Assembly: GCF_024223415.1 (NCBI RefSeq)
Contig: NZ_CP100500.1
Source: Escherichia coli
Lineage (GTDB): Bacteria; Pseudomonadota; Gammaproteobacteria; Enterobacterales; Enterobacteriaceae
Reading direction: 5' to 3' (one strand)
Length of the DNA: 64,000 nt
Shown: piece after piece, positions 39,007 through 47,230 of the stretch
How positions within the stretch are numbered: position 1 is the first letter of the stretch
Layout of the letters: each line of letters opens with the position of its first letter
Program-made: the position numbers and the translations under genes
The notes under the pieces: model-generated
What the model was told of the DNA's origin: nothing
Database searches by the model: none
Seen by the model: only the letters and a program-made list of their open reading frames with translations

Positions 39007-40790
39007 ATCTGTCAACGACGGATGAAAAGTGGTTCTTCCGCAACCTGGGTGGAAGAAAATGGATGAAACTTTCTGGCGAACAAGGATCTAAGCTGTTTTA
39101 AGTTATGGGCAACGCAATGCACTCTCTTAAGACACTTCTACAGTTACCTTGCGGATGGCGATGCAGTCGACAAATTATTAGCTCTGACGGTATAACCCTC
39201 CATCTCCACGGAAAACGCAAAACAGCACAATGTCCTGAATGCTTTAAGCGTAGCGACTCTGTTCATAGTTGTCGTCGGCGCCGGATACAGCATCTACCCT
39301 GCTCAGGGCAGACGCTATGGCTTGTATTTTCCGTCCGCCACTGGTACTGCCGTAACCCGGCTTGTTCACGTAAAATTTTTGCCGAGTCGCTTGCTCCCTT
39401 CGCCGGTTCACACCAGCAGTCTTCACAGGCGTTACAAAATTTACAACGTCAACTGGGATTAATAGCTGGAGGTGAGGCTGGAAAACGGGCTGCAACGGCA
39501 GCGGGTCTCCGTTGCAGTGCTGATACTCTTCTTCGCAGGGTATCAATACCCCGGAGACGAAACAGTCAGGCGCGCCTCATGTCGGTATTGATGAGTGGGC
39601 GTGGCATCGGGGCCACTGCTGCGGTATGTTAATAGTCAATCTTGATACTCACCGTCCCCTCGTCCTGCTTCCCGGCCGTGATCAGCGTACGCTGGCGACC
39701 TGGTTCAGAAAATATCCGGAAATACAGGTTGTCTCGCGTGATCGCAGTGGAGTCTATGCGACAGCAGCACGTGAAGGTGCACCTCAGGCCAGACAGGTGG
39801 CCGATCGATGGCACCTGCTAAAAAATATTGGTGATGAGCCTGAACGAATGATGTACAGACATATGCCTCTGATACGTCTTGTTGTCAGAGAGTTATCACT
39901 GAAGAAATCACCTGAGCCAGAAATATCTGTGCCTGTAGCATCGCTCCGTCGTCTGGAACGCCTTAAACAGCACATCCGCAAAAAACGGCATCAGCGTTGG
40001 ACAGAGGTTATGGCCCTGCATAACAAGGGATGTAGTTTCAGGGAAATATCCCGTATTACAGGCCTGTCGCGAGTGACAGTCAGTCGCTGGGTGGGTTCAG
40101 GAACATTCCCTGAAATGTCAACTAGGCCTCCAAAGCGAGGGCTTCTGGACCCATGGAGGGAGTGGTTAAAAGAGCAACGAGAATGTGGTAATTATAACTC
40201 CGGCCGGATATGGCGGGAAATGGTGGCCAGGGGGGTTACAGGCAGTGAAACCATCGTCAGGGATGCTGTTGCCAAATGGCGTAAAGGCTGGATCCCACCG
40301 GTTACTACTGCCGCAAGACTTCCTTCAGTGTCCCGGGTAAGCCGCTGGTTGATGCCCTGGAGAATAATCAGGGGTGAAGAAAATTATGCTTTCCGATTTA
40401 TTAGTCTGATGTGTGAAAAAGAACCGGAGTTGAAAATAGCGCAGCAACTGGTACTCGAGTTCTACCGTATTCTGAAAACCTAAAATAAATCACAGCTAAG
40501 CAGCTGGTTCACTCGGGTCCACGAAAGCGGCTCAGCAGAACTTCGGTGCGTAGCTGCGGGGATGGAAGCTGATGCTGCGGCTATATGTGAGGCAATCAGC
40601 AGTCGCTGGAGTACTGGTGTTGTCGAAGGTCATGTAAATCGCCTGAAGGTGCTGATACGCCAGATGTATGGTCGAGCCGGACTTGAACTACTTAGGCGGA
40701 GGGTAATGAGTCCACTGGCATGAAAATCTTCACCCAGGTTGCGGAAGAGCCACTTTTGCACTGTTCGTGACAGTATGGCCTTTATGTACT
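39007..40790 (+). mobile_element. ISL3-family-like insertion sequence with a frameshifted transposase; ends approximate
   Basis: Imperfect terminal inverted repeats containing GG(T/C)TCTTCCGCAACCTGGGTG at 39031 and (reverse) 40751; transposase split into frames 39105..39632, 39626..40483 and a C-terminal piece ending ...EGHVNRLKVLIRQMYGRAGLELLRRRVM (~40722). Confidence 0.5.
39105..40483 (+). pseudogene. Disrupted ISL3-like transposase (at least two frameshifts)
   Basis: Zinc-finger N-terminus (CPECFKRSDSVHSCRRRRIQHLPCSGQ), ADRWHLLKN segment and HTH-like segment lie in different frames. Confidence 0.5.
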
Positions 40791-40793
40791 CAC

Positions 40794-41095
40794 TTTGTTA
40801 CCGGTAGCTGGATCATCACTACCGTGCTGCAAATGGTGGTGAACAGCATCAATTGTGGAATGAATGTTGCCGAAGCGACCAATGCGCCTCGTTTCCACTA
40901 TCAGTGGTTGCCGGACGAGCTGCGTGTTGAAAAGGGTTTAGTCCGGATACGCTCAAGCTGCTGGATGCAAAAGGTCAGAAAGTGGCGCTGAATGAGGCGA
41001 TGGGCAGCACGCAAAGCATTATGGTTGGGTCGGATGGTGAGTTGTACGGCGCATCCGACTCGCGCTTGGTGGATGATTTAACGGCGGGGTATTAA
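40794..41095 (+). pseudogene. ggt: 3' remnant of a gamma-glutamyltranspeptidase gene with an internal frameshift
   Basis: Translates ...VTGSWIITTVLQMVVNSINCGMNVAEATNAPRFHYQWLPDELRVEKG then, after a frameshift, SPDTLKLLDAKGQKVALNEAMGSTQSIMVGSDGELYGASDSRLVDDLTAGY*. Confidence 0.7.
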
Positions 41096-41134
41096 TTGAC
41101 ATCCCCCGGCGCAATGTGCCGGGGGATAATGGTT

Positions 41135-42169
41135 TTATGCGGTCAATAATCGTCCGGGATTATCGATACAGAGTTTTTTGAGGATCGTTTTATCGACGCC
41201 GCGCTCCGCCAGATAGGCCAGAAAAACATCTGGAACAAATCCCCAGCCATTACCGCCATTTTTAGCCCACATTTGTTTAAGGAAGACATCGTGGCTGAGA
41301 ACAAGCTGATCGGCGTATCCCAACTCAATGAGATGAGCGACGGCATCGGCAGTCTCCTGCACCCCTGGCGCTATTCCCTCTTTCGGGAAGGTAATGTCTA
41401 GGCCAATCATGTCGAATTCCAGCCAGACACCTTTATCAAGCATTTTCCGCTGATACGCCACGTCTTTTCCTGACGGATCCGAGTGTGCGAGAGAGACTTT
41501 ATTTGGCGAGACGCCCATTTCACCTAACACAATGTCGAGTACTTCATCACCGCGACGAAGCCAGCCCGGCATGTGAATATTCATCGCCACATGAGGATTG
41601 TTAATCTGTGCCAGCGAGGCAGCCCGCAAGCTGTTATGCTCGGCTTCGGTAAATGTCGGTGAAACACCTATTTCACCGATCATTCCGGCACGAATATCCG
41701 TATCGCCAATCCCTTGATTCAATTCTTTATCGATCGTTGTCGCCAGTTCATCAACCGTTTTATGAATTCTCTGGCTTTCAAATTTTTCCAGGTAGGGACC
41801 GGAGGAAGCAACAATATTCAGACCTGTTTTTAATGCGACTTCTCGTAATGCCTGCGCATCTCGTCCGATAGACTCAGACCCTGTGGCATCAATAATGGTG
41901 CGACCACCGAGCGAGATAAAGTTATTGATTTCGAAGATCACATCTTCAATAGGTTTGCGGTCCATATTATCAGCGCAGCAATAAGGATCGTGTTTTAATG
42001 CCCACTGGATTTCTGCCGTGACTTTTTTATCAACAAGCCGTTGTGAAAAAGGATAGCAAGGAGCATCCACAACAGAGGAAAGATCGTTGAACAGATGTTC
42101 ATGAGGAAGTGTTAGCCCCATATCTTCACGGGCGACGGGGCCCGTCACAGTTTGTAGATAATCTTTCAT
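41135..42169 (-). CDS. Phosphotriesterase-family (PTE/PHP-like) metal-dependent hydrolase
   Basis: 344 aa; N-terminal GLTLPHEHL metal-binding signature. Confidence 0.7.
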   Translation of the reverse strand: MKDYLQTVTGPVAREDMGLTLPHEHLFNDLSSVVDAPCYPFSQRLVDKKVTAEIQWALKHDPYCCADNMDRKPIEDVIFEINNFISLGGRTIIDATGSESIGRDAQALREVALKTGLNIVASSGPYLEKFESQRIHKTVDELATTIDKELNQGIGDTDIRAGMIGEIGVSPTFTEAEHNSLRAASLAQINNPHVAMNIHMPGWLRRGDEVLDIVLGEMGVSPNKVSLAHSDPSGKDVAYQRKMLDKGVWLEFDMIGLDITFPKEGIAPGVQETADAVAHLIELGYADQLVLSHDVFLKQMWAKNGGNGWGFVPDVFLAYLAERGVDKTILKKLCIDNPGRLLTA

Positions 42170-42171
42170 GA

Positions 42172-43137
42172 TTATACCTCCATTTTCTTCATTGTTTTCG
42201 AGGTTCTGTATTCCGGAATAGTGGTAACAATTGCACCGACCAGTGCAAACAGTGTTCCGATGATCGTGACCAGATAAACGCTATTGCCCAGCGATGGAAT
42301 TAATACGTCAATCAATACTGATCCCAGTAACTGGCCCGCCGTTGAAGCAACCCCCAGCATCAGTAACCCCAGACCTCTGACCAAAATGGCCATTAAACCG
42401 ATAGACATTAGTCCAAGCGGGCCGCCAAGATACATCCACCAGACATCTGGTAATTGAACAGTGACGTGCCCTAATGCGACACGAATAGCAAGCGCTGTGC
42501 CTAAAACACAAAATCCAACGATGAAATTCTAGGTGATTGAAACCAGCATGGATCCCGTAGCTTCAGCTACTTTTGCATTTCCAGCGGGCTGCCATCCTGC
42601 AAGCAAACCAGCTAAGAACGGAAGAATGGCAAGTAAGATGAAAGAGGTAGAATGCCACTGAGGTGACACAACAAAAATCGTAGCAATAACCGCAAATAAT
42701 GCACCGATGATGCAATAAGGGGTAAAGTATTTTTTCTCGTCGACACCGATACCAAAGCGATCGCAAAGTAAACCAGACAGCAATAGCGCGGAGATCAGTG
42801 CGGTTTGAAACGTTGCGACCCCGAGTGCGCTGGCTGATGCGCCTTCAGAAAATACCACCATCGCTCCACAGAGACCGGCAAACCAGTTCCAGAGAGGAAC
42901 TTTTCGGTTTTTAATCAGAGAAGGAATTGCCGCAAATTGTTGCCGGGTTTCTTTTCGCGCCATAATAATAAAAAACATCACGACTAAACCACTGGCAAAG
43001 GAGATAACTGCGCATGCATTACCATCCTGTAACCAGTGACCTAATTGACCATTCACCGCTGATTGCATAGGGGAGAGCATACCCGCAAGAATCGTGGCAA
43101 GCATCCATAAGGGAGTTGAGTACTTATTCTTTTTCAT
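42172..43137 (-). pseudogene. Inner-membrane transporter gene interrupted by one in-frame amber codon (TAG at 42529-42531)
   Basis: ORFs 42529..43137 and 42172..42435 share a frame; membrane-like sequence continues straight across the TAG (...LVSIT*NFIVGFCVLGTALAIRVALGHVTVQLPDVWWMYLGGPLGLM...). Confidence 0.7.
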
Positions 43138-43193
43138 ACATCAATCCTTCTATTATAGTAAATGGAGTAACTGGAGTTACCCCATTATTATTA

Positions 43194-43952
43194 TTATCTT
43201 GCAATATGAGTCAGTATATTTACCCACAACGCGGTATAGAACGGCCAGGACATAAACTGCTGTGTACCCCAGTGCGGTGAACAGTCACTCATAAAGCAGG
43301 CTATTTTCCCGTTGTGATAGTTACCAAAGACCAGTAATGGAGCGTTGTTTATTGTTAATACCACCTCAGCATTTTCTTTAGCGATCGCCCGGTTATAACC
43401 TAGGAAAAAAGGATATTCAGAGAACCCTTTAATAACTGGATGTTCAGGTTGTGATGGCTGTGCAATAACACCCTCTGGTTTTTCGACACGATCGTCACCA
43501 TCTAACATCGTAACCGGGAGCACATCAGCCAGAACTGTATTTTTATAATTGGCTTTTGCTTCAATTCCCATGAATGAGAGATAGCCGCCAATCATCAATA
43601 ACCCACCACCGTTATTCACATATTCTTTAATCAGTTCGAGAGCGTTTGGTTTTATGCGAAGCTGATAAAAAGTATCATTTTGTAGCAGGAAAGTATTACT
43701 ACCAATATCACTAATAACGATGGCATCATATTGTTCTAACTGTGCCACATCTTCAGGGAAGGCAATTTGTACCGTATGTGCTGGCATATAGGTGACATCT
43801 ACCTGACTATTTTTCAGACACTGGAGTAACCAGGTCGCACCTTCTTCATATTTACTTGAGGTAAAACTGTCATATCCTTTTGAATGAATCATATGAATAT
43901 GCCAGGATTCCCCAATAAAGAGCACTTTTAGTGATTTTTTGGTGTTATTCAT
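43194..43952 (-). CDS. Class-I glutamine amidotransferase-like/ThuA-like domain protein
   Basis: 252-aa ORF; fold assignment by weak recollection only. Confidence 0.4.
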   Translation of the reverse strand: MNNTKKSLKVLFIGESWHIHMIHSKGYDSFTSSKYEEGATWLLQCLKNSQVDVTYMPAHTVQIAFPEDVAQLEQYDAIVISDIGSNTFLLQNDTFYQLRIKPNALELIKEYVNNGGGLLMIGGYLSFMGIEAKANYKNTVLADVLPVTMLDGDDRVEKPEGVIAQPSQPEHPVIKGFSEYPFFLGYNRAIAKENAEVVLTINNAPLLVFGNYHNGKIACFMSDCSPHWGTQQFMSWPFYTALWVNILTHIAR

Positions 43953-43965
43953 TCTCTGTCCCTTC

Positions 43966-45180
43966 TTAATGCGTAAAAATAGTTTGCTGATAATGTATAC
44001 TCTGAATTCGATGTATCACAGATTCATGTTCAGGCATGTCGGAAGCATTGCTTGTCTCCACCGCTAGGGATGCAAAGGCGCTGGCATAACACAGTGCTGA
44101 TTCCAGTGATTTTCCTTTCGCAAGTCCTGATGCCAGAGAGCCGTTAAACGCATCCCCGGCTCCTGCCGTATTTTTAACGACCGCTGGAAACGCTGGCGAA
44201 TGAATGAATTTTTTGCCATCAAATGCGAGCGAGCCCTTGCTACCGAGCGTGATAACCGTGTTTTTTACCCCTTTATTGTGGATAGCTTCTGCAGCTCGTT
44301 TAGCTGATTCAAGATCGTGTACGTCTATGCCGGACAGTAAACCAGCTTCTGTTTCATTGGGGGTGATATAATCAACATCCTGAATAAGTTCGTTGACGAT
44401 ATCATTATAGGGTGCCGGGTTAATAATGACCGGGATACTGTTTTTTTGCGCCAATGTGATCGCTTGTTGCAGAGCGGTATAATTTGTTTCGAGCTGCAGA
44501 AGTATGACATCAGAATTAATAATCGCTTCTTTCTGAATAGTTATTTCATCGGACGACATTGTCATGTTGGCACCGGGATAGATCGCAATAACATTATCGC
44601 CAGTACCTTCATTAACAAGGATCGTGGCAGTTCCGGTTTGCGTTTCTTTCGTTTGATAAATTATACTTTTATAAATCTTAGACGAATTCATAAAGTTGAT
44701 CGCATAATCACTAAAGTGATCTGTACCTACTTTTGTTATGAAATAAACATCAGTATCGGCAAAGCTTGCTGCCAGCGCCTGGTTACAGCCTTTTCCCCCC
44801 GGTGAAAATATAAAATTACTTGCCAGAAGCGATTCTCCGATAGTGGGAAGCCTCGGCAAATAACTGATGATATCAACATTAAACGAACCAATAACGCATA
44901 CTTGACTTTTCATAGTTGAGTGGCCTTTTTTTATTCCCTGGGCTGTATCATAATTTTCAAGCGCATAAGCGATTTCATTTTTCGCAATAGTATCAAGCGA
45001 GTCTAGGACGATAAAAGCACCGCCATGACATCGAGTCAGATAGCCAAGCCTGGCAAGTTCATTAAGATCTGAACGAATAGTTTCTTTCGTTACATTGAGG
45101 CTATTGGACAGATCGGATACTTTTACAGAACCGAATTTACTGAGTCGTTTCAATATTTCATGATGGCGTTCAAATTTCAT
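43966..45180 (-). CDS. DeoR-type HTH regulator fused to a PfkB/ribokinase-family sugar kinase
   Basis: 404 aa; N-terminal DeoR HTH (MKFERHHEILKRLSKFGSVKVSDLSNSLNVTKETIRSDLNELARLGYL); C-terminal PfkB signature DTAGAGDAFNG. Confidence 0.7.
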   Translation of the reverse strand: MKFERHHEILKRLSKFGSVKVSDLSNSLNVTKETIRSDLNELARLGYLTRCHGGAFIVLDSLDTIAKNEIAYALENYDTAQGIKKGHSTMKSQVCVIGSFNVDIISYLPRLPTIGESLLASNFIFSPGGKGCNQALAASFADTDVYFITKVGTDHFSDYAINFMNSSKIYKSIIYQTKETQTGTATILVNEGTGDNVIAIYPGANMTMSSDEITIQKEAIINSDVILLQLETNYTALQQAITLAQKNSIPVIINPAPYNDIVNELIQDVDYITPNETEAGLLSGIDVHDLESAKRAAEAIHNKGVKNTVITLGSKGSLAFDGKKFIHSPAFPAVVKNTAGAGDAFNGSLASGLAKGKSLESALCYASAFASLAVETSNASDMPEHESVIHRIQSIHYQQTIFTH

Positions 45181-45288
45181 GCTTCACCTCACTTCAGTTA
45201 CGTTAATATCTATCGATGTATATTGATGTGATAATCACCATAAAGTGGCGGGGAAAAGCAAAAAAAAGCAAAAATAGCCTGAGAAAAG

Positions 45289-45700
45289 GTAAGCGTTAAT
45301 GGAGAATCATATTGATGCTTATTTATTGGTGAGAACTACGTTCCATGGCAGGAGTTCATCAATACGGTTGGAAGGTTATTCCGGCAGTACGCTCAGGATA
45401 TGGCGCAGATACGCTTCCGGATCAATGTCGTTCAGAAGGCAAGTGCCGATAAGCCCATACAACAGTGCACTGCGCTCGCCGCCGAAGAACATAAAGTTTT
45501 TATTTCCGAGACAGATGGCACAAAGGGCTTTTTCCGCGGCATTATGTCTGCCTCCGCCTGACCGTCAACACTGTAATAACAGAGTGCGCCCCACTGATTC
45601 AGTACACAGCTGAACCATTCTCCCAGTCTGGATTTTTGGATAGCGTGGCATTTTTCTCCACCATGCATGCAGTGAGTCCAGTAACAGTTTGCTCTTCTTC
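45289..45700 (-). mobile_element. Degraded IS66-family 3' remnant (terminal IR GTAAGCG at 45289, decayed tnpC 3' region), inverted copy of the 15505-15677 fragment
   Basis: Reverse complement of 45289-45430 aligns base-for-base with 15541-15677 (about 90 percent identity by eye); ORF fragments 45432..45791 and 45565..45840 retain ...LNQWGAL... like tnpC. Confidence 0.7.
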
Positions 45701-47230
45701 TGCCTGACCACAAGATGTGCTGGACTGGTAAACGATGGGGATACCTGCTTACGCGAGAGCAATAAGTGGCTGGCCACAATTCTCGGTACAAAACTCTGCT
45801 GAATAGCAGCGATTTTCCCAGCGTGGTGCGTCGTTTTCATTTTACTGGTTCTAAGTTAACAATTATCTGTTCACTAATGACTACTCTAAAAACTTGTATC
45901 AGGACTATCACTTATTTAAGTGATATTGGTTGTCTGGAGATTCAGGGGGCCAGTCTATAAACTTTTTACAAAAGGATGAATGCAGAAGGTTACTCTAATG
46001 GCCAGAGTGATGACAATGATGGTCAGACGTTGACCTGCAGAAACTGCATTTTAATTGGTCTATAAAGTCTGCAAGAGGAATCAGGGTCAGATCAGTGAGT
46101 CTTATCGCGGCCCGAAGCTATGACTGAAAGAAGGCTGGATACAGAATTGCAACAATTTGGCAATGTCAGAACACAGAAGCTTTGCAAGCAGGTGAAAGGT
46201 TATGTCTAGCAAAAGGAGTATATCAGAATACATCTACTGATGTACAAAACACAACAATAGCTTCATGATATATAAATACGTGATGACGAGTGGTACTCCG
46301 CATGGTTATTTAACTTCTCAGCACCACTAATGATCCTGAGCAACTTCGTATTTGGGCCATTGCCATGGAGTAGAAAGCTGTGTCTGAGAATGCAGAATTT
46401 GAGAAAAGAATTCGCTTTCTTGGAGAGCTTCTGAAAATGGCACGCTAACAACGTTTTGTTAAAAAATGTGAATCACTTGCCGGGGCTGCATTTTCTATTC
46501 GAGGAGAATGTTGACGTAGATATTACAGAAATCTCAGCGCATCAGGATAAACTGCTACCTTAGGTCAACCACCAAAAGAAAATACAATACGTCCAGTTTG
46601 TATGCCTTTAATAACACATCTTCTAAATGTTGAAGAATTATCCCGCCTGCTGAAGAACGTTGCTCTGAGTGTGATAAACCTTTTTATTCTTGATGATGTC
46701 AGCGAGAAGATGGAATATATCCCCGACTGGGTCGTGGTTACCCGGTTAAACATCTGGTGGCGCTAATAAATCTGGCAAGTCACATTCTGTTGAATGCTGT
46801 GACAGTGCCTTACCGAGAGAGCGAAATTGTGGTGTTCTAGTGCATAGTCGCCACCATTCCGGATAATTCTATTGCGTTGTTTTACAAGTTCTTTTACAGC
46901 GCAGATCTGTTGCTGACGTTGAATCAATAGCCTGGATTTCAGAACACAATGCCCGTTTGCTGGTTGGTCCGGCAGTAGCATTAATTCATTATCTGAATGA
47001 AATGTGTCAATCCACAGAAACCGCTGTCAATGACACATTTTGTCGGACGTTAACACGAGAAAGTCTGGCTATTCCGTAATGCCATCTTATTTCGTAATGG
47101 ATTGAGAATGCTGGATTTTTAATTATATTACGCGCAGTATTAATCGCGTAAATGTTTTGCGGTCAGCAACGGTGGGGGATCCATTGTTCTGTTCAATGAA
47201 TACCATCATACATTTGAATCAGGAGTCGGT

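Follow-up and report, generated by a model that had tools for sequence, protein, structure and literature searches.

The window, a 64,000-nucleotide stretch of Escherichia coli DNA, contains upstream of cobUST a dead insertion sequence (IS) followed by a short remnant of the gamma-glutamyltransferase gene ggt. The locus is flanked by a CP4-like island carrying inovirus-Gp2-family and zinc-ribbon genes on one side and by a four-gene cluster on the other. Both features are already pseudogenes in the NCBI annotation, and together they are a non-functional scar: RefSeq labels positions 39105-40723 'ISL3 family transposase, frameshifted; internal stop' and positions 40803-41095 'gamma-glutamyltransferase, frameshifted; incomplete; missing N-terminus'. 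The parts of the locus, with the evidence on which each assignment is based, are the following.

39010..40772, plus strand: decayed ISEc38 copy (ISL3 family), 1763 bp, running from TGTCAACG to CGTGACA (shared ends, 95.5% identity, occupied/empty pair)
about 39010..39051, plus strand: left terminal inverted repeat, with its inner 21 nt, GGTTCTTCCGCAACCTGGGTG, at 39031-39051 (inverted-repeat search, cross-copy comparison)
39105..40723, plus strand: transposase pseudogene, 539 codons when intact (open reading frame pieces 39105-39632, 39626-40483 and 40562-40723)
about 40731..40772, plus strand: right terminal inverted repeat, with its inner 21 nt, CACCCAGGTTGCGGAAGAGCC, at 40731-40751 and the outer 21 nt beyond them (inverted-repeat search, cross-copy comparison)
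40773..40796, no strand assigned: 24-bp spacer GTATGGCCTTTATGTACTCACTTT that separates the IS end from the ggt homology (no ggt likeness)
40797..41095, plus strand: ggt 3' remnant corresponding to K-12 Ggt residues 477-580, stop codon at 41093-41095 (alignment, Pfam)
41101..41127, plus strand: GC-rich terminator-like hairpin between the converging ggt' and phosphotriesterase-related gene (comparable hairpin after native ggt in Salmonella and Citrobacter)
41135..42169, minus strand: intact phosphotriesterase-related gene (PTE; STM3550 homologue), first gene of the stump-bearing block (annotation, species scan, synteny)
42172..45275, minus strand: remainder of the block after PTE, including about 95 bp upstream of rikA (Citrobacter/Salmonella homology ends at 45275)
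42172-43137, minus strand: DMT transporter, with an internal stop in the window strain (annotation)
43194-43952, minus strand: glutamine amidotransferase (GATase) (annotation)
43966-45180, minus strand: rikA PfkB kinase (NCBI name) (annotation)
45376-45714: IS66 fragment beyond the block

The scar is widespread. The 2.3-kb region around the IS and the ggt stump is 100% identical in E. coli Combat11I9 and 181.1, and there is a one-base difference to S88, 55989, the O104:H4 outbreak strains and numerous further genomes. Among 5426 complete E. coli genomes, 80% or more of the region is present in 2588, and about half share both junctions.

The element had been described from its sequence as a decayed ISL3-like IS, and this assignment holds. 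Its open reading frame pieces match the Pfam families Zn_ribbon_ISL3 (E = 1e-7) and DDE_Tnp_ISL3 (E = 2e-11 and 4e-8), the RefSeq pseudogene label is found in identical E. coli genomes, and the transposase of an intact relative scores 376 bits against the NCBIfam model NF033550 (ISL3 family transposase), for which the cutoff is 180. In addition to this DDE transposase homology, inverted repeats surround an element with a single transposase, and the inner 21 nt of the repeats contain GGYTCTTC, a motif typical of the ISL3 family. Compared over 1763 bp with an intact 1764-bp ISEc38, the window copy shows 95.5% nucleotide identity (80 substitutions), and it has the same ends as the intact copies, which NCBI names 'ISL3-like element ISEc38 family transposase'. 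By this full-length identity to copies annotated as ISEc38 family, the window element is ISEc38. It differs from the intact elements in being dead, with a frameshift and a nonsense codon, and in having no target duplication.

Intact ISEc38 copies encode a transposase of 539 residues, which exceeds the length of most ISL3 transposases. The intact protein has a helix-turn-helix (HTH) insert at residues about 303-398, corresponding to about 40000-40300 in the window, that divides the DDE_Tnp_ISL3 match in two and shows weak likeness to the IS21 transposase N-terminus and to resolvase-type HTH domains. Alignment of the window copy with an intact copy reveals two lesions: a 1-bp deletion at about 39540, which changes GGGTTATC to GGGTATC, and an in-frame nonsense mutation of codon 460 from CAA to TAA at 40481-40483. 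The transposase had been thought to be split over at least three frames; there are indeed three pieces, but they occupy two frames and reflect one deletion and one in-frame stop. The nonsense mutation at codon 460 is common to the S88, CFSAN027350 and window copies, and its presence in the copies of several lineages indicates that the insertion and its inactivation are old. Among the matches listed, the deletion at ~39540 is found only in the two window-identical genomes, and it is absent from the many whose match is one base longer (2302 vs 2301 bp).

Comparison of copies placed the ends of the element further out than the repeats suggest. The imperfect inverted-repeat arms are 43 nt long (39009-39051 and 40731-40773) and 81% complementary, and the 21-nt motif GG(T/C)TCTTCCGCAACCTGGGTG that had been proposed to bound an element of ~1.75 kb is found within them at 39031-39051 and 40731-40751. 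The repeat is real, but it is subterminal by 21 bp at each end, and the full unit measures 1763 bp in the window and 1764 bp in intact copies. The same ends are common to about seven independent insertion contexts, those compared being an ST131 plasmid, an E. albertii plasmid, a 74%-identical Klebsiella relative, a mouse-strain chromosome and three further plasmids.

An occupied/empty pair proves both the 1764-bp ends and a 5-bp target duplication for ISEc38. In pUTAK-3, the occupied site reads GTGCAGTAC, then the 1764-bp IS, then AGTACAGCC, with AGTAC on both flanks, and the empty site in p16F5M1D101 (GTGCAGTACAGCC) has AGTAC once. Three intact copies are present on a plasmid of E. coli M8; one has CATGG on either flank, and CCCGG and GTAAT are swapped between the other two, an exchange typical of two simple insertions that have recombined with each other. 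All ISEc38 duplications seen (AGTAC, CATGG, CCCGG and GTAAT) are 5 bp in length. The target duplication usual in the ISL3 family is 8 bp, a trait that ISEc38 does not share; since the family assignment rests on the transposase, we treat the 5-bp duplication as a variant trait that does not exclude ISEc38 from ISL3. The chromosomal copy of the mouse strain was also considered as a source for the duplication and was rejected, as this copy is rearranged and its right flank is an IS66 end. In the window, the element is flanked by ACATC on the left and GTATG on the right, so the 5-bp target duplication is absent. This indicates that at least one flank was rearranged after insertion and that at least one of the two junctions is secondary.

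The IS copy at this locus is already in a published table, and as a feature it is known and ordinary. The table, for strain 28Eco12, lists the same chromosomal copy as ISEc38 with a length of 1722 bp and an 'inverted TSD AAAAGT/ACTTTT' (PMC6963479). Its coordinates fall 21 bp inside the ends found here, and by our comparison of copies the 'inverted TSD' is part of ISEc38's own 43-nt ends. It seems, then, that the ends and target duplication commonly used for ISEc38 are set wrongly (1722 bp vs 1764 bp with a 5-bp duplication), which affects automated calls of IS boundaries and duplications. ISEc38 might conceivably be an atypical ISL3 element in which a 1722-bp core bounded by GGYTCTTC lies within 21-bp outer arms, in either orientation, with the 1764-bp unit transposing and generating the 5-bp duplication, although we hold this to be quite improbable. 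If true, such two-layered ends would hint at unusual end-processing or end-exchange in transposition, and the ggt stump would merely mark one frozen element.

Beyond the right end of the IS lies what had been recognized as the last ~100 codons of a truncated, frameshifted ggt, and alignment to E. coli ggt confirms this. The stump is 92.3% identical in nucleotide sequence to the 3' end of K-12 ggt (b3447), up to the stop codon; a database match to ggt covers 295 bp at 92% identity (E = 1e-116), and the Pfam family G_glu_transpept (PF01019) is matched at profile positions 420-465 of 512. What is kept is the final 18% of ggt, and its frame is that of the native gene save for one A missing from the run at 40930-40933, in agreement with the RefSeq call. 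The ggt homology starts at 40797 if a 12-bp deletion is assumed and at 40803 otherwise; such a deletion, of PGGS codons, probably occurred between 40808 and 40809. Only residues 477-580 of the Ggt precursor are represented, frameshifted, and the start codon, the large subunit and the threonine of autoprocessing and catalysis (Thr391 in E. coli) are missing. The stump is a gene fragment and encodes no enzyme. With a ggt match of this strength and an IS that is 95-100% identical to thousands of copies, the probability that the inverted repeats or the resemblance to ggt came about by coincidence is negligible, and we rejected chance similarity because the identities are far too high.

The ggt remnant had been placed immediately downstream of the IS. 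The two are neighbors, but the 24 bp at 40773-40796 that intervene are not ggt sequence. A search for the origin of this spacer in the window, in the retrieved loci and in the K-12, Citrobacter and Salmonella ggt upstream regions gave no match above chance, and in the window and the retrieved loci that were compared, copies of the spacer occur solely at the same locus in other strains.

E. coli genomes with the stump have an intact native ggt as well, which means that ~300 bp were copied or imported and not moved. Using parsimony with four outgroups, the 22 substitutions that separate stump and native gene fall on the stump branch in 13 cases and on the native branch in 6, with 3 ambiguous. 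There are 6 synonymous and 7 nonsynonymous changes on the stump branch and 5 synonymous and 1 nonsynonymous on the native branch; the counts are small, and the pattern fits that of a decaying copy, but the 6 and 7 changes on the stump branch are too sparse to part an imported functional ggt from an old duplication followed by neutral decay. States specific to the stump and common to the window and CFSAN027350 alleles include N and C in 'SINCGMNV'. The downstream contexts of the two also differ. Homology to the native E. coli ggt locus ends exactly at the stop codon, after which the native locus has a different hairpin and then yrhB.

What follows the stump instead resembles the ggt locus of other genera. 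Collinear homology with the Citrobacter and Salmonella loci extends over window positions 40802-45275 at ~76% identity, from the interior of ggt to a point some 95 bp upstream of rikA, and takes in the position of the intergenic hairpin; a comparable GC-rich hairpin follows the native ggt stop codon in Salmonella and Citrobacter. Termination of the rikA-operon transcript by the hairpin at 41101-41127 would be the one plausible role left to the stump region. The order and orientation of the genes are the same in the window as in the Salmonella STM3547-STM3550 (rikA) cluster and in Citrobacter, with ggt converging on a PTE-DMT-GATase-rikA operon. In three Citrobacter genomes a full-length ggt, whose product has 92% amino-acid identity to K-12 Ggt, adjoins the PTE gene in convergent orientation with yhhA beyond ggt, and S. 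diarizonae has the same ggt-PTE junction. In Salmonella and Citrobacter, then, ggt is complete and resident with yhhA on its other side, whereas the E. coli block has 300 bp of ggt and lies upstream of cobUST amid IS fragments. A scan of one genome per species found the operon in Citrobacter, Salmonella diarizonae, Budvicia, Klebsiella spallanzanii, Providencia and Proteus, and none of the Escherichia species representatives, again one genome per species, carries the PTE gene. Salmonella RikA (STM3547) has been characterized, and the STM3547-STM3550 cluster is conserved in Citrobacter and Escherichia (PMC13432705). In the window strain, the internal stop in the DMT transporter gene splits its product into pieces of roughly 202 and 87 aa; the gene is intact in S88 and other strains, indicating that the rikA operon is eroding in some lineages.

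One strain shows that both parts of the scar can be overwritten. In E. coli Z1322HEC0010, at the same locus as window 39010-41172, both junctions are identical to those of the window, yet the IS interior is 99-100% identical to active-type ISEc38 with an intact transposase, and over its distal ~200 bp the stump has exactly the native ggt sequence, without the frameshift. Gene conversion is the best reading of both changes, the donors being an active IS copy for the first and native ggt for the second. Since conversion of the stump by native ggt occurs, past conversion may have inflated the similarity of the stump to E. coli ggt and blurred the signal of its donor. Conversion between native ggt and an ectopic stump, even in one strain, is also a reason for caution in read mapping and SNP calling in ggt.

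The tail-to-tail arrangement of ggt with the same operon in Salmonella and Citrobacter (yhhA and ggt facing STM3550 through rikA) suggests that the stump is most likely a synteny relic and not a decayed resident paralog. We consider it probable that the ggt remnant beside the dead ISEc38 is the edge of a 4.5-kb ggt'-PTE-DMT-GATase-rikA block and that it came with the operon, in which case no complete second ggt need ever have been present here. The ISEc38 copy was inactivated by the nonsense mutation shared across E. coli lineages, to which the window strain adds its 1-bp deletion. In the order of events that we infer, the operon would have entered the IS-rich region upstream of cobUST by copying or import, the end of ggt travelling along with it. 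Citrobacter and Salmonella ggt resemble the stump much less (80-82%) than E. coli ggt does (92%), which argues for an Escherichia-like source, and the donor was most likely an Escherichia-like lineage with a ggt a few percent off that of E. coli; no donor genome with a stump-type ggt allele beside the operon was found. The presence of ISEc38 at the border of the block without a duplication suggests that a later IS-associated rearrangement shaped the left junction, and the cut in ggt, being 24 bp from the IS, is not attributable to ISEc38.

The original prediction was that an insertion followed by an adjacent deletion had removed most of a local ggt paralog: an intact second ggt would once have been present here, ISEc38 would have inserted, and a deletion from the IS end would have taken the 5' 1.4 kb. 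This mechanism is possible, and part of it stands, in that an ISEc38 copy without its normal 5-bp duplication is what an IS-adjacent deletion would leave and does point to a rearranged flank. The region is also rich in IS debris, and IS-mediated erosion continues in other E. coli strains, which at this locus show further erosion only, with IS66, IS30 and IS3 elements that cut deeper. A deletion from the IS end would, however, fuse the IS straight to ggt, whereas 24 bp of non-ggt sequence separate the IS terminus from the breakpoint, which is therefore not the direct product of a deletion starting at that terminus. Genomes with an intact paralog at the site were sought for comparison, and in none of the 5426 complete E. 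coli genomes did a chimeric query running from K-12 ggt through the stump to the PTE gene find a longer copy; similarly, a query made by joining the two IS flanks found 0 matches across the junction, and hence no empty site, in the same 5426 genomes. The exact PTE protein in public assemblies gave a consistent result, with 10 of the 10 contexts listed showing the cobU/zinc-ribbon setting and no full ggt. Because the stump is more simply explained as the edge of a rikA block that natively lies tail-to-tail with a resident ggt in Citrobacter and Salmonella, the idea of a decayed local paralog did not hold up well; we regard insertion and deletion as unlikely, and not as the best account.

The stump could also have arisen locally, by segmental duplication of the 3' end of the ggt that E. 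coli itself carries, and be unrelated to the adjoining operon. Its nearest relative is indeed E. coli ggt (92%), and the two copies have undergone ectopic conversion in Z1322HEC0010. Under such an origin, however, the duplicated sequence would have come by chance to lie against the one operon that natively neighbors ggt, a juxtaposition that is very unlikely, and the end of native-locus homology at the stop codon, beyond which a hairpin and PTE follow as in Salmonella and Citrobacter and not yrhB, would be unexplained. With homology ending there and downstream synteny of the Salmonella type, we rejected duplication of the E. coli ggt locus, to which we assign only a very small probability.

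The significance of the scar is small in that both features are routine RefSeq pseudogene calls. Our analysis adds a probable origin for the stump, as a synteny relic that the rikA operon brought along, and a correction of the ISEc38 ends with their 5-bp duplication. If the stump did arrive with the operon, it would show that the rikA-STM3550-like cluster of E. coli came by transplantation from a site next to ggt, which is useful for the study of this still uncharacterized operon.

Some further observations concern ISEc38 and the surroundings of the scar. In the M8 plasmid copy with the clean CATGG duplication, the two outer 21-bp arms have changed places with respect to the core, the right-type arm lying upstream of the transposase and the left-type arm downstream, and a copy of ISEc38 on plasmid p720632_94 has left-type arms at both ends; core and arms seem to be able to change their relative orientation or to undergo conversion. 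ISEc38 is intact and multi-copy in the mouse-derived strains RSHH22, SK6988 and M8, with 8-10 copies per chromosome in RSHH22 and SK6988, and in other strains most of the copies examined are single ones, each dead through a nonsense mutation that differs between copies. One ISEc38 copy in the mouse strains lies within a zinc-ribbon paralog and directly borders the final 78 bp of an IS66-family element. At window positions 46739-47079, just upstream of cobU, a cobalamin biosynthesis (cbi) gene is present as a 144-bp C-terminal stump beside an IS4-family fragment, a second case of the pattern seen for the IS and the ggt stump; this is presumably the site at which E. coli lost the cbi-pdu region.
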